A stretch of DNA of 64,000 nt from Mustelus asterias (Eukaryota), in the NCBI RefSeq assembly GCF_964213995.1, contig NW_027590138.1, positions 930,001 to 994,000 of the forward strand, given 5' to 3'. The notes under the pieces were generated by a model, which worked only from the letters and a program-made list of their open reading frames with translations, had not been told where the DNA came from and searched no databases. The translations under genes and the position numbers were made by a program. Shown in pieces: positions 6,750-58,834 of this stretch; position 1 is the stretch's first letter; the number at the start of each line of letters is the position of its first letter.

Positions 6750-7150
6750 GTTGCGCATGCGCCCTGCAACATATTGTCCCTCTGAAGATAGAGGTTCTGA
6801 ACCAGCCCCTGAAACCACGCCCATTGTGACCCGCCACCGACAGCAGCGCATGCGCTCTCCTTCCCCGCTGAAACAAGATGGCGACCGAAAACCGGGGCCT
6901 GTTCTCGGGGGAAAAAACCCGGGAGCTGCGAACCCGGAACCCTCATGGTCTTATTCGGGCCTTGCGACCTGGAGCGGGTATTTGTGAAGCCTCCACTCCC
7001 TCCCCACCCCGACTCCATTCCTCCCTCCGCCACACTGACTCTCACCCGCTGAAAAAACGTCCCCCGCACTCGCAGGGCTCCGAGCAAAGTGGCACTACGC
7101 ATGCTCTAGATACAGCACTGCGCCTGCGCAATAGGCTGCTGTGGAATGAA
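6750..7150 (-). promoter_or_regulatory. CpG-island promoter/first exon (cassette type I), probably for ZNF-A
   Basis: NRF1-type TGCGCATGCGC (6752, ~6845), YY1-type AAGATGGCG (~6875), minus-strand donor GTGAG at 7045. Homologous to 21560-21800 in inverted orientation. Confidence 0.65.
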
Positions 7151-7766
7151 TAGGACACTTTGACACCCGCAGGGGCACCTGGGAATTAACGGCGCCATTG
7201 TCAATCAAAGACATAATAGAAAACTATCTTGTGCAATTGAGATTAATTAATTTTTTAAAATACATTCCTCTGAATTTGTGATGAATTGGCCTGTGTACTG
7301 AGCATATATTAAGGTTCCACTTAAAATTAAAAGAAAAGATGCTGGTAAAACGCAGCAGGATTGAGAGAGAACCCACAGAGGCAAGTTATGAAAAGAGTTC
7401 AGACTGAAGCAACAATAAAAAAAACCCACACGGGGGGCCAGGAACTGAGTTCTGCATCCAACAGACAGCCTGATTTATGCCAGCTCCTAACTGTGTTTCT
7501 AAACTCGAACTTATAAAACAATAACACAGAAACAAAACTCTGTAGAGACTGTTTCTGGGACAAAGAAAATAAGTATTGGAGATATTCATCAGGCCAGGCA
7601 GCCTGTGAGAGCCACAAACAGAATTGAGGGCTCAGGTTGCTGACCTGCCCTCGGTCTGCAATTAAATATTTATAGTCAGTCACTGACTAATGGCGGTCAC
7701 AATTCCCACAATGCTCTGCACCTCAGAAACCCCTCCATTCAAAAGTTGTTCGCCGGAATTCACTAA

Positions 7767-8600
7767 TCATAGAATCCTTACAGTGCAGAAAGAGGCCATT
7801 CGATTAATCGAGTCTGTACTGCAACGGCAACAATATATTCTGCACCCTACTCTTTTCCTTTCCCCCTATGTACTCGATCAATTTACTTTTTTTCTGTACA
7901 GCACGCAAGAAATAATACTTTTCACCGTATCCCAGAACATGCGACAATAATAAATCAAATTAGACACTACATATCTTGGACACCAAGGGACAAATTTACC
8001 TAACCTGCACATCTTTGGGCTATGAGAAAAAAACCGGAGCACCCAGAGGAAATGCACACAGAGGGAGATTGTGCAAACTCCACACATGAGGTGGAGATGC
8101 CAGCGCTGAACTGGGGTGAGCACAGTAAGTAGTCTCAAAATACAAGGTTAAAGACCAACAGGTTTATTTAGAACCACAAGCTTTCAGAGCGCTGATGAAG
8201 GAGCAGTGCTCTGAAAGCTCGTGATTCCAAATAACCAAGAGAAAATGCTGCAAAATCTCAGTAGGTTTGGCAACATCTGTAAGGAGAGAAAAGAACTGAC
8301 ATTTCGAGTCCAGATGACTCTTTGTCAAAGCTTTGATAAAGGGTGATGTGGACTCGAAGCATCAGTTCTTTTCTCTCCTTACAGATCCTGCCATATCTGC
8401 TGAGATTTTCCAGCAATTTCTCTTTTGGTTTCAAATTCCAGCATCCACAATAATTTACTTTGATTCCAAATAAACTTATTGGACTTTAACTTGGTGTTAT
8501 GAGACTTCTTCCTGAGCAAACTCCACACAGACAGTCACCCACCGCTCGAATCGAACTCTGACTCAGTGAGGCAGCAGTGCTGACCACTGTGCCACAGTGA
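7767..8600 (-). mobile_element. HE1-like V-SINE containing nested Rex1 tail (~7820-7960) and Penelope-derived palindromes (8087-8515)
   Basis: SINE tail at 7767 and head at ~8600. TSD gcaaactccacaca at 8073-8086 and 8516-8529. Confidence 0.75.
8087..8515. mobile_element. Self-inverted Penelope family A pLTR mini-element with a nested family B palindrome (8235-8460)
   Basis: Minus-strand pLTR arm 8087-8190, plus-strand arm from CTGATGA at 8192. Inner element has a 13-bp TSD tgattccaaataa at 8222-8234 and 8461-8473 and is centred on tttgtcaaag|ctttgataaa at 8330/8331. Confidence 0.8.
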
Positions 8601-8791
8601 TGGTAGTTTGCCGCAAATTTCGGGTGATAACAATGGGCTGGATGTTGCTCAGAATGTGGAGCACTGCAGCAAAGTACAGAGAGACAGAGACAGAGCAGCA
8701 GACTGGACTAAGAAATGGAGTCTGCAGACTGGAACTGGCAGCATGAGGAGAGGTTATTTAGTCTAACACTCACAGCAATCTACAACCCACC

Positions 8792-10130
8792 CCCATTACC
8801 GAGACAGTGAGACAGAGATTACAAACACTCACCAACACAGCTCCACTGAAACGTCCGAGGAAAAAGAGGGAACCTGTGGCAGTTCCTGTCCTGAAATAGC
8901 CCCAGGACTGTCACTCAAACCCCCAACCCGGCCCAGTTCACAGCTCAGCCTCTCAGCTTGCAGCTTCCTACACCTTGAGCCAACCCTGTCCAGGTGTGGG
9001 AGGGATGTGGAACCACAGAGTGGGGGGAGGGGTGACCACCTGCTGTGCCCCAAATAGTTTCTCCTTCCCCTCCCCCTTGGCTCTCTAAGGTCTGAATGTG
9101 GATGTGTTGATGGACATTGCAGAGCCTCACTGAGCTTATCCTGGGTCACCCCCTCCCCCTGGGTTCAGTGTGTTCAGTTCGCTGCTTCTTTCCCTGCTGA
9201 ACCTTCAGTTAATCAAAAACAGAAAGTGCTGGAAAACCTCAGCAGGTCTGATCGCATCTGTGATCATCCAGACTGGAAGCATTAACTCCATTCTCTCTCC
9301 ACAGATGCTGTCAGACCTGCTGAGATTTTCCAGCATTTTCTGTTTCAGATTCCAGCATCCGCGGTATTTTGCTTTTATCTTCATTTAAACACGCATTCTT
9401 TGATGGCCTTTACCCTCCGTGCTCCTTTCCAGAGCTTCCCACCTTCTGCTATTGTCCCTGACTCCCACATTAACCCTGTCATTCCTTCCCTTTATCCCGC
9501 TCACATCCCGCTCGAAACTCAGCCTCAGAGTTTTAGCGCCATCTCCCCCTCCCCCAGTCCCCACATCCCAACACCCGGAATCTCCAGCCCAGCGGTTCCA
9601 GTTTGTCTGGTTTGAGTTCAGATTTGCCGCAGCACCGACAGGATTTCACTTCAAACCAGCCGGAACTGACTGCTCACAAATCCCTAAATGTTTCTCCAGC
9701 AGCCCGGGCTTGTTAACGTTGTTTAAAGTCAGCGCCCAAATGCAGTTACTTTCCTCAGTTTAAAAAACTTCTCCGTTTAATCCAAAGTATTATTCGCACC
9801 AGACATAAACACAAAATTGTGAACGTTACCCACCGCCCCCAACTCCCCCGCCCCTCCCCCTCCTCCCCCCCAACGAGACCCGAGCTGGGGTGTCCCGAGG
9901 AAGAGACATCTGTTTCGGGTGTGACAATTCTTCCACATTCTCTGGTTGACATCAAACGGAAAACGCTGGAAATTGCCTCCATTACCGAGACAGTGAGACA
10001 GAGATTACAAACACTCACCAACACAGCTCCAGTGAAATGTCCCAGGGAAAAGGGGGAATCTGTGGCTGTTCCTGTCCTGATATCGCCCCAGGACTGTCAC
10101 TCAAAACCTCAACCCGGCCCAGTTCACAGC
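8792..10130. repeat. ~150-bp direct repeat (8792-8945 and 9980-10130)
   Basis: ccattaccgagacagtgagacagagattacaaacactcaccaacacagctcc...cccggcccagttcacagc occurs twice. Confidence 0.85.
9212..9385. mobile_element. Penelope family B pLTR, inverted pair
   Basis: tgctggaaaacctcagcaggtctga followed by its reverse complement tcagacctgctgagattttccagca. Confidence 0.7.
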
Positions 10131-10139
10131 AAATTGCTG

Positions 10140-10320
10140 CTTTTGTCAAAAGGGTCACTTGGACTCGAAACGTCAGCTCTTTTTGTCTCCTTACAGATGC
10201 TGCCAGACCTGCTGAGATTTTCCAGCGTTTTCTCTTTTGGCTGGAAATACTCAACAAGTCAGGCAGCCTCTGTGGAGAGAGAAACAGACTGAATGTGACC
10301 TGTCATCGGAACTGGGAAAT
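10140..10320. mobile_element. Penelope family B pLTR fragments in opposite orientations
   Basis: gggtcacttggactcgaaacgtcagctc...gacctgctgagattttccagc then an inverted degenerate arm. Confidence 0.65.
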
Positions 10321-12049: not shown

Positions 12050-12395
12050 AGACACTTTACAGCCTTCAGAACAAAACTGAGCTCAACAATTTTACACCAC
12101 AATCTCTCCCCCCATTGTGTTCTGTGTTTCGTTGCTGCTTTTTTCACCTCATTTCCCACTTGTTTTCTTTACTTTACATTCAGACTATCGCTCACCAGCT
12201 ATTCACACCTCATCCAGAACATCTTTTGTATCTTTATTTGTCCCATTACCACTCGCTTTGGTCTTGGGCCGTGAAACATTTTGTCAGTTTGCAGATCTTT
12301 CATTTTGTTCTTCTCCACCTCCCTTTCTCAATTCTTCAGAGGTCAGTCTTTGACAAAGGGTCATCTGGACTCGAAACGTCAGCACTTTTCTCTCC
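12050..12395 (+). mobile_element. Penelope family B 3' end with hammerhead motif
   Basis: Degenerate TLQPS...NNF ORF end, pyrimidine-rich 3' region, TTGACAA-A-GGGTC-atctg-GACTC-GAAA-CG-TC at 12350-12380. Confidence 0.65.
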
Positions 12396-12419
12396 TGACA
12401 AATGCCCGTGACCACTGAA

Positions 12420-12880
12420 GTGCGTCATGGGCATTCAGCCTCTGATCTTTGGGTAAACATTCTCCAAGGCGGCCTTCAGGACACACGACAGCGCAGAGTC
12501 GCTGAGCAGAAACTGATAGCCAAGTTCCGCACACATGAGGACGGCCTAAACCGGGATGTTGGCTTGATGTCACACTATCAGTAACCCCCACAGCTTGCCT
12601 CCTGGACTTGCTGGTTGTCCTGTCTGGAGACAATACGAATCTCTTTAACCTGTGCTTAATGCTCCCTCCACTCACATTGTCTGTATCTTTAAGAACTGGT
12701 TGGCTGTAGAGATTTGCATTCTAATCAGTATTCTGTAACTTGATTTTGTGTCTCTGTGCACTGTTTGAGAGCAGATTTCCACTCCATCTGACGAAGGAGC
12801 AGCGCTCCAAAAGCTAATGGTATTTGCTATCAAATAAACCTGTTGGACTTTAACCTGGTGTTGTTAAAACTGTTACTCTA
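12420..12880 (+). mobile_element. Penelope family A 3' fragment (GIY-YIG endonuclease C-terminus plus pLTR)
   Basis: HGHSASDL...RRVAEQKLIAKFRTHEDGLNRD*; hammerhead-like CTGACGA at 12788 with GAAA mutated to AAAA; AATAAA. Confidence 0.8.
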
Positions 12881-15369: not shown

Positions 15370-15978
15370 GGATGAATGAACACCGCTCGACAATCATCAG
15401 GCAAGACTGTTCTCTTCCTGTGGGGGAGCACTTCAGCAGTCACGGGCATTCAGCCTTGGATCTTCAGGTAAGCGTTCTCCAAGGCGGCCTTCACGACACA
15501 CGACAGCGCAGAGTCGCTGAGCAGAAACTGATAGCCAAGTTCCGCACACATGAGGACGGCCACAACCGGGATGTTGGATTTATGTCACATCATCAGTAAC
15601 CCCCACAGCTTGCCCCCTGGACTTGCAGAATCTCACTAGCTGTTCTGTCTGGAGACAATACACATCTCTTTAACCTGTGTTTGATGCTCCCTCCACCCAC
15701 ATTGTCTGTACCTTTAAGACCTGGCTGGTTGTAGGGATTCGCATTCTAATCAGTATTCTGTAACTTGATTTTGTGTCTCTGTGCCCTGTTTGAGAGCAGA
15801 TTTCCACTCCATCTGACGAAGGAGCAGCGCTCCGAAAGCTTATGGTATTTGCTACCAAATAAACTTGTTGGACTTTAACCTGGTGTTGTGAGACTTCTTA
15901 CAGGAGGGGAAACAGCAGCAGTGCAGTCTGCGCAAAAGCTGTGTTCAGCCCAGTCCAATGCCGGCATCTCCACATCAC
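15370..15978 (+). mobile_element. Penelope family A 3' fragment with intact hammerhead motif
   Basis: MNEHRSTI...LPVGEHFSSHGHS...EQKLIAKFRTHEDG GIY-YIG end; pLTR ending gccggcatctccacatca. Confidence 0.85.
15809..15845 (+). ncRNA. Minimal type I hammerhead ribozyme motif (Penelope pLTR)
   Basis: CCAT-CTGACGA-A-GGAGC-agc-GCTCC-GAAA-gc-TT-ATGG: stem I, core, stem II and palindromic minimal stem III. Confidence 0.7.
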
Positions 15979-16064
15979 TTTTAAACTGTCAGGTTTCTCC
16001 TGAGTCGGGTACACCTGTTCGGGTACACTGAGGGAGAATTCAGCATGGCCAATGCACCTAACCA

Positions 16065-16163
16065 TAATGGTATTTGCTACCAAATAAAGCTGTTGGACTT
16101 TAACCTGGTGTTGTGAGACCTCTTACCGTGTTCACCCCAGTCCAACGCTGGCATCTCCACATC
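16065..16163 (+). mobile_element. Penelope family A terminal pLTR fragment
   Basis: taatggtatttgctaccaaataaa...agtccaacgctggcatctccacatca. Confidence 0.8.
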
Positions 16164-16321
16164 ATCCCCTCCTGTCCACCAGAGGTCGCTGTAGGCCTCC
16201 CAGCTGCTGCTCCTCCCAGTGTCACCTCTTGCCCACTCCAGCCCCTCCAGTACACCTCACTGGAGCCCCAGGCCATTCTTGCCATCCTGCCAGGTCTCGG
16301 GTACTGAGGCCAGTAGTAAAG

Positions 16322-18021: not shown

Positions 18022-18546
18022 TCACTGGTGAACTCGCTGGTGTCTCACCAGGTTGTGTGACTGGGTGAATCTCTTTCCACACATCGAACAAGTGAACGGC
18101 TTCTCCTCACTGTGAACTTGTTGGTGTCTCAGCAGAATGGATGACCGGGTGAATCCTTTCCCACACTCAGTGCAGGTGAACGGTTTGTCCTCAGAGTGAT
18201 TTCACTGGTGTGCGAGCAGACGTTTTCTCACAGTCAGAACATTTGAATGGTCTCTCATTTGTGTGAACAAGTTGGTGTGAAGTGAGAGAGGATAAACAAG
18301 TGAATCCCTTCCCACACACAGGGCAGGTGAACGGTCTCTCCCCACTGTGAATTCGCTGGTGTACAGTGAGGTCGCCTGATCGCCTGAAGCCAGTCCCGCA
18401 GTGAGAACACGTGAACGGTCTCTCGTCAGAGTGAACACGTTGATGGCATCGCAGTTCCTCAGAACTTTTGTAGCCCTTCCCGCAGTCTGGACATTAACCG
18501 GTCTCTCTTCACTGTGAACTCGTTGGTGTTTCTGCAGGTTGGATGA
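18022..18546 (-). pseudogene. Decayed C-terminal fingers of ZNF-B
   Basis: About 6 more finger units with frameshifts and stops, ending at the ancestral HQRVHQ* at 18022. Confidence 0.8.
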
Positions 18547-19209
18547 TCAGTTAAATCCCTTCCCACATTCAGAGCAGGTGAATGGCCTCTCTCCAGTGTG
18601 AATGCGCTCATGTGCCACAAGGTGGAATGATGTCCTGAACCCCTTCTGGCAGTGGGAGCAGCTGAACGGTGTGGTTCCGGTGTGAATGTACTGGTGCTCC
18701 CGCAGTGTGCGTGGAGTTTTAAAACTCTTTCCACACTCAGTGCATTTAAACTCTCTCCTGTCGGTGTGAACTCGCTGGTGTCTCTGCAGGGCAGAGAAAT
18801 CTGTGAATCCCTTCCCACACACGGAGCAGGTGAATGGCCTCTCCCCTGTGTGAGTGTGCCAATGCATCAGCAGGGCCGATGACTGAGTAAATCCTTTTCC
18901 ACATTTGGAGCAGGTGAACTGCCTCTCCCTGCTGTGAATGCGCTGGTGTATCAACAGGCCAGCTGACTGAGTGAATCCCTTCCCACACACAGGGCAGGTA
19001 AAAGGTCTCTCTCCAGTGTGAGTGCGTCGGTGATTTTCCAGGCCAACTGGGTAATTGAATCCTTTCCCACAGTCTCCACATTTATACGGTCTCTCCCTGA
19101 TGTGACTGCGCTTGTGTCTTGACAGGCCAGACGATCGTTTGAAGCCTTGTCCACACACAGAACATGTGTATGGTTTCTCCCCACTGTGAATGGTGCTTTT
19201 TTCTTCCAT
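18547..19209 (-). CDS. C2H2 zinc-finger gene ZNF-B, truncated by a nonsense codon after 7 fingers
   Basis: [16 protein letters not shown] at 19209, acceptor at 19316-19317, TGA inside the helix of finger 8. Confidence 0.6.
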
Positions 19210-22150: not shown

Positions 22151-23217
22151 CCACCAAACTGGGCAACAGGTGTCTAAACAGTTTCACCCGCTTCCAGCCT
22201 GCAGCTGATGTTTACAGGAGTCCATGAACCATGTACATATTCAGTGTGAGAGGTTGCTGTCCCTGAAGGAGCTGCTTCTCCACTTTTAGTTACACTTCTA
22301 TTCTGCCCCACGCTCCTAATCATTGGCTGCCCATGTGGAGGAGGCTTGGGAGGTCAGAGGATCTTTTCCTGGACCTGCTCTTGGGGCTGGTTAAAACAGT
22401 GATTTGTAGATCAACATGGGGTCACTTAGCTGTTGGCTGCTCTTCCGTGGTCTTGTCCATGCTCTTGTGGTCCTGGAGAAGAATCGTGCAGTGTTGACTG
22501 GAACACTCGAAAACTCCACAACTCAGGGTACAGAGTGTCTCATAGACACTGGAAACAAAGTTCTGGTTTAGTTGAGATGGAAGTTTGATTGGACCACAAG
22601 ATTGGGGAAACAAAAGATAAAAGAATATTCCATAGAAACTAGAATTGTCTGTTCTGAATTTCTGTCCTGTGCTGACAACGATACTGACTCTGTCAATGTC
22701 TTTTACAAGGTCCACAAGGGCGATGAATTGCAGATGGGAAACTGAAACCAAACATCACATCAAGAGCTGACAGAGTCCCTCAATTCATCAGGACCTGAAT
22801 ATCATCAACCTTTAAATGTGGAAGGAGAAATGTTTTTCTGTTTTGGCGATGAGGAAAGATTTCAAACATCACTGTGACTGGAAAAGCACCAAGACTTACA
22901 CACACACCCAAGTGAGAGTGTTCCAGTCAACTGACTGTGGAAAGAGCTTTAACCAGTTACACAGCCTGATTGTTTTTAAAAATCTCACTATTCACAGCAG
23001 AGAGCCAAAGGATGAGAAGATCTTGGAGCAGAATTAGGCCATTGGGCCCATTGAGTCTGCTCCACTATTCACTGATCTGATATAATCCTGAACTCCACTT
23101 TCCTGCCTTAACCCCATGACTCTTGATTCCCTTACTGAGAAATAATACACAAGTTCTTTGTGTGGACAAGGCTTGAACAGATTGTTTAACCTAGAGAGAC
23201 ACAAGGACACCTGTACC

Positions 23218-24351
23218 ATGGAGAAACCATGCAAATGTGGGGACTGTGGGAAGGGATTCAGTTACCCATCGCTGCTGGAAATACATCGCCGCGGTCACAC
23301 TGGGGAGAGACCATTCACCTGCTCTCTGTGTGGGAAGGGATTCATTCAGTCATCCCACCTGCTGACCCACCAGCAAATTCACATTGAAGAGAGGCTTTTT
23401 AACCACTCTGACAGCGATAACAACTCTAAAAGCTCTGAGGACCTGGTCAAGCACCAGATTGTTCACATTGCAAGACAGTTCAGTTGCTCTCACTGTGGGA
23501 AGCTGTTTAAACGATCACAGAACCTCATTGAACACGAACGCACTCACACTGGGGAGAGGCCATTCACCTGCTGTGTGTGTGGGAAGGGATTCACACGATT
23601 ATCCCACCTCGCTACACACCGACTGGTTCACACTGATAACAGACCTTTCAAATGTTCCGAATGTGAGAAGAGTCATAAAACCACAACTGATCTGCTGATA
23701 CACCAGCGAGTTCACAACAAGGAGAGGCCATTCAGATGTACAGTGTGTGGGAAGGGATTCACTCTGTTATCCAGCCTCCAGAAACACCAGCGAGTTCACA
23801 TTGGGGAGAGGTCGTTCACCTGCTCCTTGTGTGGAAAAGGATTCATTTATTTAAGCAGCCTCAGATCACACCAACTTGTTCACTCGGATAAGAAACCTTT
23901 CAAATGTTCTGAATGTGAGAAGAGCTTTAAGACCTCCAGTATTCTGCTTAGGCACCAACAAGTTCACTCCGGGGAGAGACCGTTCACCTGCTCTGACTGT
24001 AGAAAGGGATTCACTCGCTCATCCAACCTGCGAACACACCAGCACATTCACACCGGGGAGAAACCGTTCACCTGCTCTGACTGTGGAAAGGGATTCACTC
24101 GCTCATCCAACCTGCGAACACACCAGCACATTCACACCGGGGAGAAACCGTTCACTTGCTCTGAGTGCGGGAAGGGATTTTCTCACTCATCCCACCTGCT
24201 GAGACACCAACACACTCACAATGGAGAGAGACCGTTCACCTTCTCTGAGTGTGAGATGGGATTCACTCAGTCAACCCATCTTCTAACACACCAGCAAATT
24301 GACAAGTGTCTGGGGGAATTGGATTCTGCTGTTAATCACATCCAGGACTGA
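23218..24351 (+). CDS. C2H2 zinc-finger protein ZNF-C (11 intact plus 2 degenerate fingers)
   Basis: accATGG MEKPCKC start; two adjacent near-identical RSSNLRT fingers; acceptor near 22709; CR1 tail fragment at ~23010-23140 in the 5' part of the exon. Confidence 0.85.
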   Translation: MEKPCKCGDCGKGFSYPSLLEIHRRGHTGERPFTCSLCGKGFIQSSHLLTHQQIHIEERLFNHSDSDNNSKSSEDLVKHQIVHIARQFSCSHCGKLFKRSQNLIEHERTHTGERPFTCCVCGKGFTRLSHLATHRLVHTDNRPFKCSECEKSHKTTTDLLIHQRVHNKERPFRCTVCGKGFTLLSSLQKHQRVHIGERSFTCSLCGKGFIYLSSLRSHQLVHSDKKPFKCSECEKSFKTSSILLRHQQVHSGERPFTCSDCRKGFTRSSNLRTHQHIHTGEKPFTCSDCGKGFTRSSNLRTHQHIHTGEKPFTCSECGKGFSHSSHLLRHQHTHNGERPFTFSECEMGFTQSTHLLTHQQIDKCLGELDSAVNHIQD

Positions 24352-30401: not shown

Positions 30402-31355
30402 TCAATAGTGAACTCTCTGGTGTTTCACCAAGTTGGATGATCGATTAAATCTCTTCCTACACATGGAGCAAGTGAAGGGTTTCTCCCCAGTGTGAACTCG
30501 CTGGTGTGTCAGCAGCGCAGATGAGTTGGTAAATCTCTTCCCGCACTCGGAGCAGGTGAACGGCCTCTCCCCAGTGTGAATGCGCTGGTGTGTCAGCAGA
30601 TGGGATGATCGTGCGAATCCCTTTCCACACTCAGAACAGGTGAACGGCCTCACCTCAGTGTGAATTTGTTGGTGTGTCAGCAGGTTGGAGGACTGAGCGA
30701 ATCCCTTCCCACACTTGGAGCAGATGAACGGCTTCTCCCCAGTGTGAGTGCGCTGGTGTGCAGTGAGGTGAGATGCTTGCTTGAACCCAGTACTGCAGTG
30801 AGAGCACCTGAATGGTTCCTCCTCAGTGTGAACACGTTGATGGTGCTGCAGATCCCCAGAACCTTTGAAATACTTCTCACACTCTGGACATTTGAAAGGT
30901 CTCTTGTCAGTGTGAACTCGTTGGTGTGTCTGAAGGTGGGGAGATGTCCTGAACCTCTTCCCACACAGTGAGCAGCTGAACGGTGCGTCCCCAGTGTGAA
31001 TGAGCTGGTGCTCCCTCAGTGCGTGTGGGTTTTTAAAGCTCTTCTCACAGTCGGAGCATTTAAACTCTCTCTTGTCTTCGTGAACCTGCCGGTGTTTCAG
31101 CAGGTGGGATGAGAGAGTGAATCCTTTCCCACACACACAACAGGTGAACGGCCTCTCCCCGGTGTGAAGTCGCTGGTGTCTCTGAAGGCAAATTAATTGA
31201 ATGAATCGCTTCCCACAATTGGAGCAGATGAATGGCCTCTCCCCGGTGTGTCTGCGCCGATGAGTTTCCAGCTCAGATGGGGATCTGAATCCCCTCCCAC
31301 ATTCCCCACATTCCCATGGTTTCTCCCTGGCGTGAACGGTTCTTTTTGCTTCCAT
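30402..31355 (-). CDS. C2H2 zinc-finger protein ZNF-D (11 fingers)
   Basis: [11 protein letters not shown] at 31355, acceptor at 31460-31461. Shares the REFKC..LREHQ.IHTG..PFSC finger pair with ZNF-B. Confidence 0.85.
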
Positions 31356-31859
31356 TTTCAAAGGCCGATGATATTCAAGTCCTGATGAATCGAGTGACTC
31401 TGGCAGATTGTGATGTGGTGATTGGTTTGACTTTCCTGCCTGCGAACCTTTCCAATACTCTGTGAAATTGATTCAAAACAGAAAAAAGGGAGTGAGAGAA
31501 CGCACAAAAACACAAAGGCAGGTTGTGAAATAGAGTTGAATGAATCTGGCAATTTGTGGGGCCGGCACGAGGAAAATATGACCATGAAAGCTGCTAAATT
31601 GTTATAAAAAAACCAACTGATTCACTAATATCCTTCAGGGAAGTGAACCTTTCACATAGTCTGGATCTCGAGAGAAGAGAGACAGAGAGCTGGGAGCAGA
31701 ATGAGTGAAGGTGATGGATTGTATGTATCTAAACCTCTGCCAGAACTTTGAGAGAATTTCCCCGATCTCAGCCTCTGGCACCTCAAAGAGTCAGGGTAGC
31801 AAGTGTATGTGAACAGCAGCAACTCCAAGTTCTCATTCAGGTCACACACCACCCTGACT

Positions 31860-32810
31860 TGTCTGACATCCAGCACTGGATTAACAAAGATTTCCTCTAT
31901 TTAAATATTGGGAAGATTAAGACCCGACTACAAACTCTACTCCATACCCACTGACTCCATCCCTCTCCCTGACAACAGTTTGAGGCTGAACCAGACTGTT
32001 TGCAACGATCGAAAATTATTTCACTGAAATAAAAGCAAAAACTGAAATAAAAACAGAAGATGCTGCATAAACTCAGCAGGTCTGGCAGCATCTGTGGAGA
32101 AAGAAACAGAGTTAATGTTCTGAGTCCCTATAACTCTTCTTCAGAGCTGCCAGCTGAGTTTCTGACCATTTATCTCTGCCACCTCCAAGAATGAGTTTCT
32201 ATCTCATAGAAACCCTACAGTGCCGAAGGAGGCCATTCAGCCCATCAAGTCTGCACTGACAACAATCCCACCTCGGCCCATCCCCGTAACCCCACATATT
32301 TACCCCAATAATCCCTCTAACCTACGCACCCCAGGACACTAAAGGGCAATTTAGCATGGAAAATCAACCTAATCCACACCTCTGGACTGTGGGAGGAAAC
32401 CGGAGCACCCGGAGGAAACCCATGCAGACACAGGGAGAATGTGCAAATTTCACACAGACAGTCACCCAAGTCGGGAACTGAACCCAGGTCCCTAGAGATG
32501 TGAGGCAACGGCGCTAACCACTGTGCCACCGTGCCACCCTAAATCTAATTCCCATCACTCGACTTGGTCCAAATACATGTTCCTGAAACTCTCGTTCATT
32601 CATTTATAACCTCTAGACTTGATGATTTTTCACATCCTGACCAGCCTCCATTCAAGCTGTGATAAACTAGAGTTCATCCAAATCTCTGCACTGAATCTCA
32701 ATGACTCACTGACTTACACAGGCTCCCGTTTGAGCAGCAACTCAGTTCAAAATTCTCATCTTTCTTTTCAAATCCCTCCATGACATTGCTTTTCCCCATT
32801 TCCAGTCTCA
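31860..32810 (+). mobile_element. Old L2 LINE fragment, interrupted by a Penelope B pLTR (32030-32150, minus) and a V-SINE (32205-32540, minus)
   Basis: LSDIQHWINKDFLYLNIGK resembles the L2 RT C-terminal motif. Confidence 0.55.
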
Positions 32811-34420: not shown

Positions 34421-34928
34421 GCTTCAACACCCCCAATCAGGAACTAGCGGCACCGCCTCAACACCCAACACAACGGCAGCTGCAGCGCTTTCTCCCGGGG
34501 CCAGGCCCCAGTGGACAAATGTGGCTTCAGGAAGGAAATGCAGCAATGGGTTTGTTAATGAGAATCATCTTTAACTCACTTTACTGACCCTGGAGCAGGA
34601 GGAGAGAATGGGGGGAATTTCTGTCCTGCACTCACACTGATGGATTTGTTTTTTTGTGGGTTCTCTCTCATTCCCTTTTTCCTGTTTTAAATCAAGTTCA
34701 CAGGTTTTCAAAAAAGGAGGATTTGCAGCTGGGAAACTGAAACCTAATATCACATCAGAATCTGATGGAGCCGGCACCAATTTATCAGAACCTGAATGTC
34801 ATTGTATTTTGAACATGGAAGAAAAATGCACTGTTCACAGTTGAGAGACACTGTACGCACGTTGTGTGTGTGGACAAGACTTCAATCACTCATCGGGCCT
34901 TTTGGACTGTTATTGCAGTCACAAACGG

Positions 34929-35600
34929 ATGATGGCATGGAAATGTGGGGACTGTGGGAAGGGATTTGATTTTCCATCACAGCTGGAAACTCATCGGCGC
35001 AGCCACACTGGGGAGAAGCCATTCACCTGCTCCTGGTGTGGGAAGGGATTCGCTACCTCATCCCAGCTGCTGAAACACCAACGAATTCACACTGGAGAGA
35101 GGCCATTCACCTGCTCTGTGTGTGGGAAGGGATTCAATCAGTCATCCAACCTAGCAATACACCAGCGAATTCACACTGAGGAGAGGCCATTCACCTGCTC
35201 TGTGTGTGGGAAGGGATTCAATCAATCATCCAAACTAGCATTACACCAGCGAATTCACACTGGGGAGAAGCCGTTCACCTGCTCTCAGTGTGGGAAGGGA
35301 TTCACTCACTCAGCCAATCTGCTGAAACACCAACGAGTTCACACTGGGGAGAGGCCATTCACCTGCTCCCAGTGTGGGAAGGGATTTACTCACTCATCTC
35401 ACCTTCGGAAACACCAGCGGATTCACACTGGGGAGAGGCCGTTCACCTGCTCTGTGTGTGGGAAAGGATTCAAGCAGTCATCCACGCTGATACATCACGA
35501 ACGGGTTCATACTGGGGAAAGGCCGTTCACTTGTTCCCAGTGTGGGAAGGGATTCATTACCTCATCCAGGCTGCTGAGACACCAGCGAATTCACAAGTAA
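34929..35600 (+). CDS. C2H2 zinc-finger protein ZNF-E (8 fingers)
   Basis: Acceptor at 34702-34703. Ancestral MEEK ATG (34815) is closed by an in-frame TGA at 34842; next in-frame ATG is at 34929. Confidence 0.7.
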
Positions 35601-38128: not shown

Positions 38129-39011
38129 GTTTTGAGAAGGAGAAGATTTGCAGACAGAAATCTCAAAACCAAACGTCACGTCAAGACCTGACACATTCAC
38201 TCAATTCAAAGGGACCTGAATATCATTGGTCTTTCAGTCTAGAATTGAATTGAAGTATGTACAGATGGAGGGCATTGATTGGATCATTATATGAGTGTGT
38301 ATGAAGAAAGCGTGTATAAAGAAATGGTGTTCTGTCTGCTTCAGAAGGTTCTAATGATGTGGAGATGCCGGCGTTGGACTGGGGTAAACACAGTAAGAAG
38401 TTTAACAACACCAGGTTAAAGTCCAACAGGTTTATTGGGTAGCAAAAGCCACACAAGCTTTCGGAGCTCCAAGCCCCTTCTTCAGGTGAGTCACCGCAGT
38501 CACACCAGGAAGAGGCTGTTCACCTGCGCTGAGTGTGGGGAGGGATTCACACGGTCATCTCATTTGCTGACACACCAGCAAGTTCACACTGGGGATGGGC
38601 CATTCACCTGATCCGTGTGTGGGAAGGGATTCACTCAGTCATCCAACCTGCTGACACACCAGTGAATTCACAACAGGGAGATGCCATTCACCTGCTCCTT
38701 GGGAAAGATTCACTGAGTCATCCAGTCAGCTGAAATACCAATGTGGTCACACTGGTGAGAGGCCACTGACCTGCTCTGAGTGTGGGAAGGAATCCGCTCA
38801 GTTATCCAACTTGCTGATGCACCAATGTATTCATACTGGAGAGAGACCATTAATGTGTTGTGTGTGTGAGAAGAGATTCATTGATTCATCCAATCTGCTG
38901 TGACACCAGCAAGTCCACATTGAGGAGAGGCCATTCCCCTGCTTTGAGTTCAGGGAAAGTTTAAATCAGTCATCCAACTTGCTGACACACCAGCAGGTTC
39001 ACACCGATTAG
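38129..39011 (+). pseudogene. C2H2 ZNF pseudogene P1
   Basis: Acceptor ttttacAG at 38127-38128; finger units with several stops and deletions; Penelope insertion at 38354-38490. Confidence 0.8.
38354..38490 (-). mobile_element. Penelope family A pLTR with intact hammerhead motif (38452-38488)
   Basis: Minus strand CAC-CTGAAGA-A-GGGGC-ttgga-GCTCC-GAAA-gc-TT-GTG. Confidence 0.8.
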
Positions 39012-43678: not shown

Positions 43679-44040
43679 GGGGAGGCGATGGCCTAGTGGT
43701 ACTATCGCTAGACTAGTAATCCAGAAACGCAGCTAAAGTTCTGGGCACCCAGGTTCAAATCCCACCATGACAGATGGTGGAATTTGACTTCAATAAAAAA
43801 TATCTAGAATTAAGAATCTACTGATGACCATGAAACTATTGTTGATTGTCAGAAAAAAACCCATCTGGTTCACTAATGTCCTTTAGGGAAGGAAATCTGC
43901 CATCCTTACCTGGTCTGGCCGACGATGACTCCAGAGCCACAGCAATGTGACTGACACTCAACTGCCCTCTCAAGGGCAACGAGAGGTGGGCAATAAATGC
44001 TGACCAGCGACACCCATGTCCCACACTGAATAAAAATAAA
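43679..44040 (+). mobile_element. tRNA-derived SINE family B in the 3' region of P2
   Basis: Full head, core and aataaaaataaa tail; splits the ZNF 3' UTR motif. Confidence 0.8.
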
Positions 44041-44114
44041 ACTGTCAGAGTGAACATGGTTCAGTTCTGGATGTGAATAACAGCAGCAATAACAGCAGAA
44101 TCCAGTCCCTGTAA

Positions 44115-45119
44115 TCATTTGTGAACTCGCTGGTATCTGAACAGATTGGATAACTGAGTGAATGCCATCCTGCACAGACCCAGTGAATGGCCTCTCCCCA
44201 GCATGAAGACACGGGTGTGTCAGAAGGTTGGCTGAATCAATGAATGCTTTCTCATTCAGTTGAACAGCCTCTCCCATTTGTGAACTCGCTGGTGTGTCTG
44301 CAAGTGAGATAATCGATTAAATCTCATCTCACACTCTAGACAGCTGAATGGCCTCTCCCCTGTGTGAACTCGCTCGTGTCTCAGCAGGTCAGATGAAGTA
44401 GCGAATGCTTTCCCACTCAGAGCAGATGAACGGTCTCTCCCTAGTGTATCTGTAGGTTGTAAGAGAGAGAGAATCCCTTTCCACACTCAGAGCAGGTGAA
44501 TGGCCTCTCCCCAGTGTGAACTCGCTGGTGCGTCTGCAACTGAGTTAACCGACTGAAACTCATTTCACACTCAGAGCAGGTAAATGGCCTCTCCCCACTG
44601 TGAATTCGCTGGTGTATCCGGAGATTGGAGGACCAAGAGAACGCCCTACCACACTCTAAGCAGGTGAACGGCCTCTCCCCTGTGTGAACTCACTGGTGTG
44701 TCATTAAGTCGGATGAATTAGTAAATCCCTTTGCACACTTAGTGGAAGTGAACAGTCTCTCCCCAGTGTGAATTTCCAGCTCCGACGGGAATCTGAATCC
44801 CTTTCCACAGTCTCCACAGTTTTTCCATGGTGTGAGTGTCCTTGTGTCTCTCTAGGTTCCTGAGTTGTCCACACACAGACTTTGTGTACGGTCTCTCCTT
44901 TGTAAATGGTGATGTTCTTTCAGGCTGTATAATGTCTAGCTGCATGGGTCTCGTTGCTTTTCCAGTCACACCAATGTTCAAAATCTTATGAAGCAGATAG
45001 AAGAGAGAAACATTTCTCCTGGACTCAAATGCCGATGATATTCTGGTCCCAATAATCAAACAATTATTCTTGATATTTGCTTTGAGATTTCAATCTGTAA
45101 ATCCTCCTCCTCTGTTATT
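44115..45119 (-). pseudogene. C2H2 ZNF pseudogene P2
   Basis: HTMEKLW start region, then finger units with deletions, frameshifts and stops; acceptor at 45120-45121. Confidence 0.8.
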
Positions 45120-45838: not shown

Positions 45839-46264
45839 TTATATTATATAACAAGAATAAAACTAACAATACATGAATCTTATTACTGAAACAAAAATAT
45901 ACCGAGATGTACCTTCTATCAACAGAAGACATATATCTGTCGTTATTAACCTAAAAAGTAAACATATTTCCAGAAAAGTCCAATGGAATATTGAAGGACA
46001 CCGTTTCACATTTAAAAAACTTTTACTTTAGAAATTTATCTAAAATCAGCATCACTAAATCATGCAAAGAGAGAAACGGTATTTGAATCGACAAGATAAA
46101 TTACACTTTAAAAACTCAGACAATAAAAACAGGTTCCACAAAATCACAAACATTTCCCCCTCAGTATATTTGGCTCTAATATTTGGTTCCAGAGTATTTC
46201 TGTCTCTTTAATTCTCAGGGGCAGAAATAAAGTGTTTTCCTCACAGATGTTGTCCAGAGGAGGA

Positions 46265-47598
46265 GGTTTGAGTCTGTGTGTGAAGTTTGAGTCTGTGTGT
46301 GAAGTTTGAGTCTGTGGTGAAGTTTGAGTCTGTAGTGAAGTTTGAGTCTGTGGTGAAGTTTGAGTCTGTGGTGAAGTTTGAGTCTGTGGTGAAGTTTGAG
46401 TCTGTGTGTGAAGTTTGAGTCTGTGTGTGAAGTTTGAGTCTGTGGTGAAGTTTGAGTCTGTGTGTGAAGTTTGAGTCTGTGGTGAAGTTTGAGTCTGTGG
46501 TGAAGTTTGAGTCTGTGGTGAAGTTTGAGTCTGTGGTGAAGTTTGAGTCTGTGGTGAAGTTTGAGTCTGTGTGTGAAGTTTGAGTCTGTGTGTGAAGTTT
46601 GAGTCTGTGGTGAAGTTTGAGTCTGTGGTGAAGTTTGAGTCTGTGTGTGAAGTTTGAGTCTGTGTGTGAAGTTTGAGTCTGTGGTGAAGTTTGAGTCTGT
46701 GTGTGAAGTTTGAGTCTGTGGTGAAGTTTGAGTCTGTGTGTGAAGTTTGAGTCTGTGTGTGAAGTTTGAGTCTGTGTGTGAAGTTTGAGTCTGTGGTGAA
46801 GTTTGAGTCTGTGGTGAAGTTTGAGTCTGTGTGTGAAGTTTGAGTCTGTGGTGAAGTTTGAGTCTGTGTGTGAAGTTTGAGTCTGTGTGTGAAGTTTGAG
46901 TCTGTGTGTGAAGTTTGGGTCTGTGTGTGAAGTTTGAGTCTGTGTGTGAAGTTTGAGTCTGTGTGTGAAGTTTGAGTCTGTGGTGAAGTTTGAGTCTGTG
47001 GTGAAGTTTGAGTCTGTGTGTGAAGTTTGAGTCTGTGTGTGAAGTTTGAGTCTGTGGTGAAGTTTGAGTCTGTGGTGAAGTTTGAGTCTGTGTGTGAAGT
47101 TTGAGTCTGTGTGTGAAGTTTGAGTCTGTGGTGAAGTTTGAGTCTGTGTGTGAAGTTTGAGTCTGTGGTGAAGTTTGAGTCTGTGTGTGAAGTTTGAGTC
47201 TGTGTGTGAAGTTTGAGTCTGTGTGTGAAGTTTGAGTCTGTGTGTGAAGTTTGAGTCTGTGGTGAAGTTTGAGTCTGTGTGTGAAGTTTGAGTCTGTGGT
47301 GAAGTTTGAGTCTGTGTGTGAAGTTTGAGTCTGTGGTGAAGTTTGAGTCTGTGGTGAAGTTTGAGTCTGTGTGTGAAGTTTGAGTCTGTGTGTGAAGTTT
47401 GGGTCTGTGTGTGAAGTTTGAGTCTGTGGTGAAGTTGGAGTCTGTGGTGAAGTTTGAGTCTGTAGTGAAGTTTGAGTCTGTGGTGAAGTTTGAGTCTGTG
47501 TGTGAAGTTTGAGTCTGTGTGTGAAGTTTGAGTCTGTGTGTGAAGTTTGAGTCTGTGGTGAAGTTTGAGTCTGTGGTGAAGTTTGAGTCTGTGGTGAA
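46265..47598. repeat. 18/19-bp minisatellite, ~70 units
   Basis: gaagtttgagtctgtggt (18 bp) interspersed with gaagtttgagtctgtgtgt (19 bp). Confidence 0.98.
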
Positions 47599-47699
47599 GC
47601 TACAAACAGAAGCTGTTCTGTTTCAAATCAAACTGCGGGACTTGGAAGAAAATGATGGGAAGAGATTTTGCAAAGTCCCCTCCCCCACTCCCTCAGCTG

Positions 47700-48285: not shown

Positions 48286-48963
48286 TGTATATTCTATACA
48301 TTTTTAGTTCAGTCGTTTAGACATATATCTGTCTGGCAGCCTGCATGGAGATTTCCAGCTCTCTGTATTCAGGGCAGGAAGCCGTGAGCATGGATCTGTC
48401 AATCAGCCTCAATCAGCACCTTCAGGAGAATTGGGAGGGTGAATATTAGATACAGCAGAGTGAGAATGGAGGGAGAGTGTGTAGGATGGAGATTCACAGC
48501 TTTTGGGGAATATGCGAGGAAAGAATGCGTTATAGAAACTAAAATGATGTGTTCTGAATTTCTATCTTATACTAACTGTGATGTCTGTTGTAAATTTATA
48601 TTACAGGCTATCAGGAGGTGAGGATTTACAGTCAAAAATCTCAAGCCAAATGTCATGTCAAGAACTGACAAAGTCACTCAATTTGATAGAACCTGAATAT
48701 CATCTACCTTTGAATCCAGAAGAGAAATGTTTCTCTGTTCTGTCATCTTCAAAAGATTTTAAGCATGAGTGAGAGTGGAAAAGCACTGAAACATGCCCAC
48801 ACCCAAGTGAGCGCATTCCAGTGTAATGACTGTGGAAAGAGCTTTAACCAGTTACACAGCCTGAAAACACATCGCAGCATTCACAGCGGGAGAGACTGTA
48901 CCTGTGTTCTGTGTGAGATTTAACTGATTGTTTAACCTGGAGAGTTACAAGGACATCAGCACC

Positions 48964-50226
48964 ATGGAGAAACCGTGGAAATGTGGAGACTGTGGGAAGG
49001 GATTCATATCCCCATCTCAGCTGGAGATTCATCAACGCAGTCACACTGGGGAGAGGCCATTCACCTGCTTTGTGTGTGGGAAGCGATTCACTCACTTACC
49101 TAATCTGCAGAGACACCAACGAGTTCACACAGGGGAGAGGCCATTCAGGTGCTCTGACTGTGGGAAGGGATTCGCTCATTTATCCAGCCTATGTGCACAC
49201 AAAGTCACTCACACCCAGGAGAGACCCTTTAAATGCTCTGACTGTGGGAGCAGATTCAAAAGCTCTGGTGAACTGGTATCCCACCAGCGCATTCACACTG
49301 AGGAGAGACCGTTCAGCTGCTCTCACTGCTCAAAGAGGTTTAAAATGTCATCCAAACTGCGGATACACCAAGGAATTCACACTGGGGAGAGACCATTTAC
49401 CTGCTGTGTGTGTGAGAAGGAATTCACTCATTTATCCAGTCTGCGCGCACACAAAGTCACTCACAGCAATGAGAGACCCTTTAAATGCTCTGACTGTGGA
49501 AGCGATTTCAAACGTGCTGTGGAACTGAGAGACCACGAGCGCATTCACACTGAGGAGAGACCGTTCAGCTGCTCTCACTGCACAAAGAGGTTTAGAAATT
49601 CATCCGACCTGCTAACGCACCAGCGAGTTCACACCGGGGAGAAACCGTTCACCTGCTCTGTGTGTGGGAAGGGATTCATTCATTCATCCCACCTGCTGAG
49701 ACACAAGTTCACTCACACCAATGTGAGACCCTTTAAATGTTCTGACTGTGGGAGTAGCTTCAAAAGCTCTCGGGATCTGATGATTCACCAGCGCATTCAC
49801 ACTGAGGAGAGACCGTTCAGCTACTCTGTCTGCACAAAGAGATTTAGAATGTCATACAACCTGCGGAAACACCAGGCAGTTCACACCGGCGAGAGGTCAT
49901 TCACCTGCTCCGGGTGTGGGAAGGGATACATTCAGTTATCCAGCCTGCTGAGACACAATGTCACTCACACGCAGGATAGATCCTTTAAATGCTCTGACTG
50001 TGGAAGTGGCTTCGAAAGCTCTGGAGAACTGGTGTCCCACCAGCGCATTCGCACTGAGGAGAGACCGTTCAGCTGCTCTCACTGCTCAAAGAGATTTAAA
50101 ACATCGTTCACACTGCGGGTACACCAGCGAGTTCACACAGGGGAGAGGCCATTCACCTGCTGTGTGTGTGGGAATGCATTCACTCAGTTATCCCACCTAC
50201 AGAGACACCAGCGAGTTCACAAGTGA
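48964..50226 (+). CDS. C2H2 zinc-finger protein ZNF-F (15 units, 13 intact)
   Basis: accATGG MEKPWKC start; acceptor at 48605-48606; repeated three-finger module. Confidence 0.85.
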   Translation: MEKPWKCGDCGKGFISPSQLEIHQRSHTGERPFTCFVCGKRFTHLPNLQRHQRVHTGERPFRCSDCGKGFAHLSSLCAHKVTHTQERPFKCSDCGSRFKSSGELVSHQRIHTEERPFSCSHCSKRFKMSSKLRIHQGIHTGERPFTCCVCEKEFTHLSSLRAHKVTHSNERPFKCSDCGSDFKRAVELRDHERIHTEERPFSCSHCTKRFRNSSDLLTHQRVHTGEKPFTCSVCGKGFIHSSHLLRHKFTHTNVRPFKCSDCGSSFKSSRDLMIHQRIHTEERPFSYSVCTKRFRMSYNLRKHQAVHTGERSFTCSGCGKGYIQLSSLLRHNVTHTQDRSFKCSDCGSGFESSGELVSHQRIRTEERPFSCSHCSKRFKTSFTLRVHQRVHTGERPFTCCVCGNAFTQLSHLQRHQRVHK

Positions 50227-50489
50227 TGACAGGGGTTGGATTCTGCTGTTATTGCTGCTGTTAATCACATCCAGGACTGAACCATGTTCATTCGGACAGT
50301 TGGTGAAGTGGGAGGGTCGGAGGGTTTCTTTCTGCTGGACTGGCCAGTCTCACAACTTTGCCTCCAGTGGGCTGATGCTCTTTGAACCTGGGAGAGCACA
50401 TTTCCACTGAAATGATCCACAAAACTAATGAAGGACATTTATTTTATCCTTGATCATAAATTTTTCCTACGACTACTGGTCGATCTAAA

Positions 50490-51105
50490 ATAAATACAGA
50501 AAAAACTAGAAAATCAAAGCCAGTCTGGTAGCATCTCTGGAGAGAGAAACAGAGATAACCTTTTATGTCCAATGTAACTCGACTTCAGAACGAAAGCGAG
50601 GGAGAAATGTGATGGGTTTGATGCTGGTGAGAAAGAGGGGAGGGGCAGGTAGAACAAAAGGGAAAGTCAGGGATTGGTTAGAGGGTGGGTGAGATTAAAT
50701 GACAAAAATATGCTGGAACAAAAGGCAAAGGGAGAGGTAATGGGTGTGGTAAAGAAACAAAGCATTGGTCCAGAGTAAGTGTTAATGGCAGAATAAATGA
50801 CAGCTCTGTCTGGAAGCAAAAAAACATGAAAACAAGAAACAGACTGGCACTCAGCAAAAAAACCCATCAAAATGGAGGAGAGAGTTCAGGGTGTGAAGTT
50901 GTTGAACTCAATGTTGAGTCCAGAAGGCTGTAAAGTGCCTCATCGGAAGATGAGGGGCTGTTTGTCCAGCGTGTGTTGGGCTTCTCCGGAACATTGCAGC
51001 AGGCCGAGGACAGAAATGTGAGCGTGAGAACAAGGTGGTGAATTCTAATGGCAAGCTGAAGGTCAGGGTCATGCTTGTGGACTGAGCGGAGGTGTTCCAC
51101 AAAGA
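50490..51105 (-). mobile_element. Penelope family B 3' fragment
   Basis: EHLRSVHKHDPDL plus frameshifted LIFR.GTLQPSGLNIEFNNF GIY-YIG end; degenerate pLTR and hammerhead at ~50550-50590. Confidence 0.7.
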
Positions 51106-52504: not shown

Positions 52505-52640
52505 AAGGCAAAATTCTGCTGTTGCTGGAATCTGAAACAGACACAGGAAATGCTGGACAATCTCAGCAAGTCTGACAGCATCTGTAAAGAGAGAATGGAG
52601 GCAACATTTGGAGTCAGGATGACCCTTTATCAGAGCTGAA
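52505..52640 (-). mobile_element. Penelope family B pLTR
   Basis: Minus strand ctgataaagggtcatcctgactc...cagatgctgtcagacttgctgag. Confidence 0.65.
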
Positions 52641-53450
52641 AACAAAGAAAATCAGACAAAATTCATCCCGTGAGGGTCAAGAATTGGGAAGCAATCTATT
52701 AAACCTCCTCTGAACCACTTTCAATGCATTTGTATCATTTCTTAAATAGGAGACAAAGCTACACCCAGTGTTCAAGATGCAGTCTCAGCAATGCCCTGTA
52801 TAACTGAAGCAGAACATCTTTACTTCTATGTTCAATTTCTTTCGTAATAAAGGATAACATTCCATTTGTAAGAACTTTGATTTATGTGAATGAAGATTTA
52901 TGAGGGTTCTCTTGTTTACAATAACCTCCCCAATCGTAAATCACACCAGGTTCGTGTCTTAACCATGTGGCAAGAAAGAAAGCAAGCTTTAAATGGTGAA
53001 ATCAGAAAGTTTGTTAACCATTAAAAATGTAACAAGTCAGAAAGATAAAAAGCAAAGTGTCGATTAACAGTTAATAGAGAAAGTTTAACTTTAACAATTG
53101 AACAGACTTCTCTCCATCCCTCTCAGACCAGGACATGACGTGACGGCTCCGAAAACATGGATAACTTGTAAAACCAACAGCTCTCCACACCTCTCTGTAA
53201 ACATATCTCCCTCCACCTCTCTCTACCAAGTTGGCTTCTCAAGACCACTTTTTTATACTTTAAAAATGCTGAAAGCCCATCTTAGCCAATTCCCATAAAT
53301 CTTCAATTATGAACTAAAATAGACACGAGTTTTCGGGTGATTTAAAAACAAATGAACTGTCTGCTGAAAGGGTTAACTTTTCTACAGAACCTAAAGGGGT
53401 GGAGAGTGAGCAGCAAAAACTTGGCACACAATTACATCACTTTACACAAC

Positions 53451-55912: not shown

Positions 55913-56204
55913 CTTCTTACAAGTTTAAAAAACTTCCCTAAGAACAAAACAAACTTGATGTTAAACTGCATCCATTAATTTTTTTGTTCTATTCATCAAC
56001 CTAATTATTTTAATTTGATCAGTTATTGTGAGGGATGATTAACTTCTGTTCTTTATAAACTGGTTCACTCATTTTGTTAATTCTACATGGGCTCGAGAAT
56101 CAGAACCCAGACTTTATCATCCTTATTTTTTCTCCCTTTGCCACCACTCCCTCTGTTTTGCGGGAGGGTCGTGGGGATTCCAATCAGAACTAATCAAATT
56201 ATCA

Positions 56205-56372
56205 TAAAAGTAAAATACTGCGGATGCTGGAATCTGAAACGAAAACAGAAAATGCTGGAAGATCTCAGCAGGTCTGACAGCATCTTTGGAGAGAGAATAG
56301 AGCCAATGTTTTGAGTCTGGATGAGCTTCTTACAAAGTGTCATCCAGAATCGAAACGTTGTTTCTATTCTCT
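56205..56372. mobile_element. Penelope family B pLTR, inverted pair
   Basis: Minus arm to gagtctggatga, then plus arm tcatccagaatcgaaacgttg. Confidence 0.7.
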
Positions 56373-58349: not shown

Positions 58350-58834
58350 GGTGCAGGTGTCCTTGCCGCTCTCTTGGGTGGACAATTAGTTGAAACTTTG
58401 TCCACACACACAACACGGGTACAGTCTCTCCCCGCTGTGAATGGTGTGATATTTATTCAGGCTGTGTGACTGGTTAAAGCTCTTTAGTCAGTGCACTGGA
58501 ACACTCTCACTCGAGTGTGGCAGTGTGTTGCTGCTTTTCCAGTCACACTGATGTTTGAAATCTTTTCAAATCAACAGACCGGACAATCATTTCTCCTTCT
58601 AGATTCAAAGTCCGATGATATTCAGCTCCCAAGGAATATGACTGTCAGATCTAGACGTGACGTTTGAGATTTCAGCCTGTGATTCCTCTTTCAATATCCT
58701 GTAAAATGAGTTTACAAAAGTCATCAGTGTCAGTACAGGATAGAAATTCAGAACAGACAATTTCTATGGAACATTCTTTCCTCTCTCATTCCCCAAAAGC
58801 TGTAAATCTCCATCCCACACACTCTCTCCCCATT

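Follow-up and report, generated by a model that had tools for sequence, protein, structure and literature searches.

Nested, back-to-back inserts in a SINE of Mustelus asterias: most likely dead terminal fragments left by Penelope-like retrotransposons

An older SINE in the Mustelus asterias genome contains a nest of two inserts, the first (family A) interrupting the SINE and the second (family B) interrupting the first. Each insert is most probably a dead terminal fragment of a Penelope-like retrotransposon (PLE). The favoured reading, to which we assign a probability of about 0.78, is that successive insertions into the SINE left what are likely dead, 5'-truncated PLE products, and that these were probably inverted at insertion. 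The back-to-back shape has already been described for PLEs, and this is most likely not a new mobile ribozyme element; the locus itself is minor, a neat case, in repeat-rich DNA, of what Penelope elements are already known to do. The whole stretch of 64,000 nucleotides that was analysed is referred to as the window, and all positions are those of the window (Table 1). Inversion junctions are given as minus arm/plus arm, counted from position 3 of the hammerhead core.

Table 1. Features of the nested locus and the family A reference copy
Feature	Position	Strand	Remarks
Host SINE, central and 3' part	7992..8086	-	includes left TSD copy
Insert A TSD, left copy	8073..8086		14 bp exact (8070-8086 with one mismatch)
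A left arm	8087..8194	-	starts in helix II loop (+12)
A tail, ~30 nt	8087..8116	-	this arm only, unpaired
A inversion junction	8192..8194		3-nt microhomology CTG
A minimal type I hammerhead core	8192..8220	+	C3-G8; AGCT palindromic helix III
Insert B TSD, left copy	8222..8234		family A sequence
B left arm	8235..8332	-	tail-less; carries descriptor-passing core
B inversion centre	8329..8332		self-complementary AGCT
B right arm	8329..8424	+	core 8333-8363 decayed
B tail, ~36 nt	8425..8460	+	unpaired, this arm only
Insert B TSD, right copy	8461..8473
Rest of A right arm	8474..8515	+	stops at tail-less site
Insert A TSD, right copy	8516..8529
Host SINE, 5' tRNA-type head	8530..8600	-	A box 8594-8584; B box 8556-8548
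A reference copy	15372..15901	+	continues into C-terminal end of PLE ORF

The sequence-only reading had proposed that a SINE is interrupted by A and A by B, with TSDs of 14 and 13 bp. Both duplications were found where it had placed them, as exact direct repeats (17 bp for insert A if one mismatch is allowed), and the order is borne out by these and by empty sites in other window copies. As a control, 300 boundary pairs were drawn at random: 296 of them scored no more than 9, as compared with 14 and 13 here, and the remaining four, with higher scores, all come from tandem repeats (three pairs at 46.7-47.5 kb and one at 14.6-14.7 kb). When A, B and one TSD copy were removed, the host became collinear across the site with eight other SINE copies. 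Likewise, when B was removed, the right arm of A aligned across the site with the left arm of A itself and with other A copies. Since collinearity is restored by removing the inserts with one TSD copy, the SINE was in place first, then A and then B.

Rejoined across the inserts, the host SINE is 78-85% identical to six other copies. Its tRNA-derived head has A and B boxes, identified by the patterns of Pol III promoters, and no tRNA was found by ARAGORN. The host is a putative V-SINE, a label that would call for a conserved central V domain, and the CR1 label for repeats in this region is likewise provisional. A V-domain reference sequence was not found in passages of PMC6887750 or in the supplements of PMC6887750 and PMC4824008 that were searched.

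Repeats are dense, with at least 41 of the 64 kb having another match inside the window; SINEs occupy ~6% and family A ~3%. A rough product of occupancies gives ~0.012 triple nests expected per 64 kb, or ~190 per Gb, so that such a nest is uncommon per window and common per genome. The nesting is probably a chance event in repeat-rich DNA, perhaps helped by the AT-rich target inside A. There is a second contact between B and A in the 64 kb, at 12401-12405, slightly more than the ~3% occupancy suggests; together with the ATT near both ends of the B target, it makes mild targeting possible. Around that contact (12348-12878), 5 nt are common to a B fragment and a 23-nt inverted piece of the A ORF, and a forward A copy comes next, possibly the outcome of a template switch. 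At the focal site, the left TSD of B starts one base past the predicted self-cleavage position of the A hammerhead (8220-8222), probably by chance.

Family A can be identified from its sequence as the pLTR of an endonuclease-bearing (EN+) PLE, and the earlier description of this insert as a self-inverted pLTR held up. The longer A copies, at 12424, 15372, 26918 and 62135, enter a reading frame upstream. Because they continue into the end of an RT/GIY-YIG ORF, A represents the 3' end of an EN+ PLE. The 75-aa ORF end upstream of a longer A copy matched 20 of 29 candidate proteins, and the closest named ones were from Mustelus asterias (the best, 95%), Scyliorhinus and Heptranchias. The best-matching protein, from Mustelus asterias, gave a GIY-YIG match with an E value of 2.5e-4 and a score of 21.7, just under the Pfam cut-off of 22.6; a 643-aa relative has an RVT_1 domain, and the best-matching protein maps to four A copies in the window. 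Taken by itself, the 66-aa ORF end did not match any Pfam model. Furthermore, A has an optional 30-40-nt tail, a truncated inverted copy and a TSD, as in EN+ PLEs. The A arms have two discrete 3' ends, four of seven at +89 to +94 and three of seven at +123/+124. The plus arm of focal A (8192-8515) is split by B. At 15372-16175, an A copy stops at the tail-less site, and a lone tail lies 37 nt further on (15939-15977); next to a further A fragment (16066-16165), 11 bp of the sequence beside the first end recur, inverted and without mismatch.

Insert B is 226 nt long and has paired arms (8237-8330 and 8331-8424) with no spacer and 80 of 94 Watson-Crick pairs. The ~225-bp hairpin proposed earlier is right as to the size of the insert, which includes a 94-bp hairpin, but the 36 nt at its right end are unpaired. 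Nor is either insert the full palindrome it had been taken for, as each has a 30-36-nt unpaired tail on one arm. B-type sequence was found at nine window loci, of which four are self-inverted. The 3' ends of 11 B arms lie at +132 (four), at +91 to +99 (three) and elsewhere (four), the two preferred ends being ~35-40 nt apart. Like EN+ PLEs, B has an optional tail, head-to-head inversion and a TSD. No long copy of B running into an ORF was found in the window, and the 13 and 9 protein matches to B translations contain no RT; these matches are chance read-throughs. A search for a PLE protein starting with the short ATG frame of B gave only host-gene or unnamed read-throughs, and a word-index search with the frame across the focal B junction gave no candidates among proteins of similar length. 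As no ORF link was found for B, it is placed with the PLEs by its anatomy.

Several B-type 5' ends come after CAG (52638-52645, 32149-32152, 58880-58885), one of them after a pyrimidine tract, and are splice acceptor-like. The 5' end of helix I is also where an intron end has been mapped in D. virilis (PMC4209133). B copies (58941-59007 and its sisters) have a short ATG frame after the pyrimidine tract and CAG, and some annotated shark proteins start with or include the peptide of this frame (P0026, P0032, P0033), which suggests exonisation or mis-annotation. Beside a LINE fragment, at 10149-10296, a B copy faces, tail to tail, a related copy whose core is shortened.

The inversion junctions differ between copies. 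The focal B junction is -4/-4, and those of the three other self-inverted B-type inserts are +48/+11 (9211-9378), about +3/+2 (56196-56372) and +23/-6 (58834-59021). The focal A junction is +12/0, and another A junction lies inside the ORF end at 12401-12424. At most of the other junctions the two arms are offset by 9-80 nt. The sequence-only reading had raised the case of breakpoints both unique and unrelated to the ribozyme; they are unique, but most lie at the 5' edge of the ribozyme or inside it. The TSDs of the other B palindromes are decayed, ~10 bp with one mismatch at 9211 and 14 bp with two mismatches at 56196; none was found at 58834. Loci outside the window were sampled through proteins that happen to translate B (22 matches), and six of the 22 are independent head-to-head copies, none with the focal junction, in a sample that is small, of codon resolution and clustered at 50% identity, so that copies with the focal junction could be hidden. 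P0023 is collinear with window 8715-9385 and hence represents the same insertion as 9211; it was dropped from the junction count, and P0036 and P0039 were left out as ambiguous. The tail is present on exactly one arm in all five two-armed window palindromes and in the three outside copies with readable ends, three more being ambiguous. Since the junctions are unique in the four window and six outside B palindromes, inversion of Penelope cDNA at each insertion, which had been named earlier as the alternative, is favoured over an amplified MITE.

In rotifer Penelopes, head-to-head inverted pLTRs, palindromic junctions, TSDs of 8-10 bp, a 31-bp tail and insertion of one Penelope into another have been described (PMC3846280), and inverted, 5'-truncated copies with a one-sided tail of 30-40 bp are known from PLEs (PMC8557442). 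The inserts studied here resemble Pen2, Pen2a and Pen3a of Adineta vaga in their head-to-head arms, palindromic or overlapping junction and TSD, in the 30-40-bp tail on one side and in insertion into another Penelope (PMC3846280; scheme in PMC8557442). However, they consist of two terminal arms only, with no ORF between, and their TSDs are 13-14 bp rather than the 8-10 bp of Adineta vaga Penelopes (PMC3846280). The human Eulor6 repeats were considered as Penelope palindromes and rejected, as they are filed as Crypton (PMC5753468).

We infer priming from two nicks as the mechanism. A GIY-YIG endonuclease would nick both DNA strands 13-14 bp apart, and reverse transcription would be primed from both nicks, the outer start site giving the tailed arm and an inner site, 30-36 nt upstream, giving the tail-less arm. 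Both cDNAs would stop after ~90-135 nt, at or inside the hammerhead, and their ends would be joined through microhomology of 3-4 nt (CTG for A, AGCT for B). The arms would then decay independently. The protein of an Anolis PLE, Poseidon_Ac (PAc), cuts and extends both strands in vitro, with two RT start sites bounding the tail and an uncleaved RNA template (PMC11167929); two such start sites and extension on both strands would apply to the inserts here as well, and their copies likewise span the cleavage site. The B target, like that of PAc, has ATT near both TSD ends, and the A target has no ATT pattern (PMC11167929). Priming without homology is reported for PAc, unlike the right ends here, which show possible overlaps of 4-5 nt with the target (PMC11167929). 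The available text of the PAc account does not treat inverted products (PMC11167929). A two-nick route to PLE inversions was not found described in a limited survey of the literature, and how PLEs make inverted copies is treated as unsettled (PMC8557442, PMC3846280).

The strongest competitor, which we regard as possible although not favoured, is that a brief self-complementary sequence lets a single cDNA (or antisense template) fold back on itself and self-prime the second arm, which would leave the PLE origin unchanged. Twin priming and fold-back self-priming yield the same product. The palindrome of focal B has AGCT at its centre and no spacer, each insert has two arms of one subfamily, and self-priming from junction palindromes has been proposed for rotifer Penelopes (PMC3846280), all in keeping with fold-back. 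The offset between the arms at most other junctions argues against it. Moreover, across 92 columns the focal B arms have 7 and 6 private changes, one position changed differently and only one change in common, which is also present in another copy, and the presence of the tail on a single arm fits two start sites on two strands. The abundant short copies in sharks could separate twin priming from fold-back through counts of tails and junctions.

The start of the B arms at or inside the ribozyme is the only part of these observations that might be new. All 11 mapped arms start between -6, the start of the reference, and +48, no upstream flank is common to the seven copies compared, and the outside copies also stop near -8 at most. 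Arms bounded near helix I are not predicted by random 5' truncation of a long RNA; the limit may come from a short template RNA or from stalling of RT at the ribozyme. According to the first of these, which we consider doubtful, B would be an ORF-less RNA of ~140 nt, from ribozyme to tail, or a run-off product from the mRNA's first pLTR, which a PLE would mobilise in trans, with its 5' end limiting the arms. The common boundary agrees with this, and family A by contrast has four copies that run into the ORF. However, the reference itself starts at -6, stalling at the structured ribozyme explains the same limit, and a related copy (50483-50600), which was left out of the seven-copy comparison, seems to reach further upstream, where it is pyrimidine-rich and weakly matches 12303-12330 (E 0.056). 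An unlikely but more far-reaching idea is that B is a 140-nt ORF-less "Penelope SINE" starting at the hammerhead and copied in trans from both nicked strands at once, so that shark genomes would contain tens of long hairpins per Mb. If so, priming on two strands would have left a fossil trace in every insertion, and the origin of inverted Penelope copies could be tested across a whole genome by means of the one-tail rule.

Neither insert codes for protein and, as had been anticipated, a long hairpin RNA would form if the region were transcribed. The predicted fold of B has a free energy of -128.7 kcal/mol (z -17) and that of the whole 457 nt -228.9 kcal/mol (z -20); the 94-bp hairpin of B includes a 25-bp perfect run. 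A donor-like site near 8833 on the minus strand, with the hairpin downstream of it, and a CpG island (6800-7200) ~0.9 kb away make transcription possible. It is very unlikely that selection maintains the hairpin, close to the promoter of a zinc-finger gene, as a source of small RNAs or a substrate for editing. Its length and perfect run, the island and the upstream donor-like site are consistent with such a role, but 14 of the 94 positions are mismatched, six through transversions, the G-U pairs (five on the plus and three on the minus strand) show no strand bias, substitutions in B have no bias to keep pairs, and the Rfam matches are far under threshold (43.5 bits vs 90). Rfam gave no match at gathering scores, and the 18 sub-threshold matches at E values up to 5 were mostly microRNA hairpins, the hammerhead being absent. 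Such inserts mimic MITEs or microRNA precursors and are missed by the Rfam hammerhead models, a warning for annotation. In the same region, 155 bp resembling an exon and ending in a minus-strand GTGAGT donor (8790-8944) are duplicated at 9976-10130 with 92% identity. Inverted LINE pieces (6012-6226/6433-6648, 92.6%) and an inverted SINE pair (12939-13089/13372-13521, 83%) are further potential hairpins.

MITEs in general have many copies of identical structure and termini and a fixed-length TSD typical of the transposase family. The inserts are like MITEs in being short, non-coding and hairpin-forming, and unlike them in that termini, junction and TSD length are not fixed and the origin is from a retrotransposon. 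An amplified MITE-like family moved as DNA is highly improbable as the source of the palindrome: it would account for a small, ORF-less insert with inverted arms and repeated kin in the window, but the focal junction occurs in none of the three other window B palindromes and none of the six outside, the ends are asymmetric with a retrotransposon tail on one arm, the TSDs range from ~10 to 14 bp, and family A is continuous with the RT/GIY-YIG ORF.

Two hammerhead-like cores face away from AAGCTT (8328-8333) in insert B. Both arms use AGCT as their 5' strand of helix I, while the base on either side of it serves as position 3 of the respective core. The minus-strand core (8328-8298) has a U3-A8 pair, 4/4 pairs in helix I and 5/5 in helix II, and passes the minimal-hammerhead descriptor. 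The plus-strand core (8333-8363) fails it, with G at A15.1 (8359) and a weakened helix II; in standard numbering, A15.1 is an invariant hammerhead position. Of the earlier claim of two back-to-back cores sharing AAGCTT, the back-to-back arrangement stands, but the common part is AGCT and only the minus-strand core passes. Nor do the B cores have the CUGAnGA form, as they read U3...A8. Insert A has one core, not two, in which the 5' strand of helix I was lost at the junction (0/4 pairs); the left arm starts in the helix II loop and so has no CUGA box. The ribozymes of both inserts look dead.

Complete minimal hammerheads gave four matches, as compared with shuffle means of 0 and 0.13, and A copies gave three complete C3-G8 matches vs none in 60 shuffles. 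The plain CUGAnGA...GAAA pattern had 17 matches vs 7.1 expected and missed family B. Pair 3-8 in seven B copies is U-A in five, C-G in one and unpaired in one. Ribozyme covariation within B alone was not above the shuffle control (185/500), and RNAalifold predicted helix II only. Forcing the ribozyme fold of B gave -87.6 vs -115.8, a penalty of 28 kcal/mol. In any read-through RNA, the antisense arm would be transcribed ahead of the sense ribozyme, so that the hairpin would sequester the latter and prevent cleavage.

Minimal hammerheads with a U3-A8 core and opposite-strand pairs occur in metazoan PLEs, the U3-A8 variant being reported from those of Schistosoma, and minimal hammerheads need a same-strand neighbour (PMC4209133). 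The cores here share with these a type I form, a short helix I, an extra base before helix II, a palindromic helix III and the U3-A8 variant, as well as occurrence as single motifs and opposite-strand pairs, which are there 100-700 bp apart (PMC4209133). In contrast to those pairs, the two cores here adjoin without a spacer and have helix I in common (PMC4209133). Sharks are not among the hosts named in the available text of PMC4209133.

Like animal non-LTR retrozymes, the inserts are ORF-less, with a type I hammerhead and PLE pLTR ancestry (bioRxiv 10.64898/2026.07.22.740005). Unlike these and plant LTR retrozymes (PMC5680766), they have no head-to-tail tandem with two same-strand ribozymes and no 4-bp TSD, PBS or PPT (bioRxiv 10.64898/2026.07.22.740005; PMC5680766). 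One chondrichthyan is represented among the families listed in the supplements of that preprint, and A or B may be among them (bioRxiv 10.64898/2026.07.22.740005). An active retrozyme that would self-cleave into circular RNA is close to untenable: minimal hammerheads are well above chance and an origin from PLE pLTRs has been argued for animal retrozymes, but two consecutive units with complete ribozymes are required (bioRxiv 10.64898/2026.07.22.740005) and the cores here are on opposite strands, two of three broken and the third probably sequestered, so that the reading, which needs same-strand tandem ribozymes, fails on geometry. Thus, of the description of the inserts as ORF-less products resembling MITEs or retrozymes, ORF-less insertion remains; the differing junctions and the opposite strands tell against the two resemblances.

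Clustered C2H2 zinc-finger exons are also present in the window, as are LINE fragments with RT. The exons lie on both strands, some with stops, at 1-803, 18100-19200, 23146-24348, 30405-31472 and 34845-35597, and more of the same cluster are at 38490-38900, 43900-44700, 48800-50223 and 57762-58385. A family A copy (38354-38490) adjoins a zinc-finger remnant. A short-unit tandem repeat of ~1.5 kb (46147-47627) has long stop-free frames.
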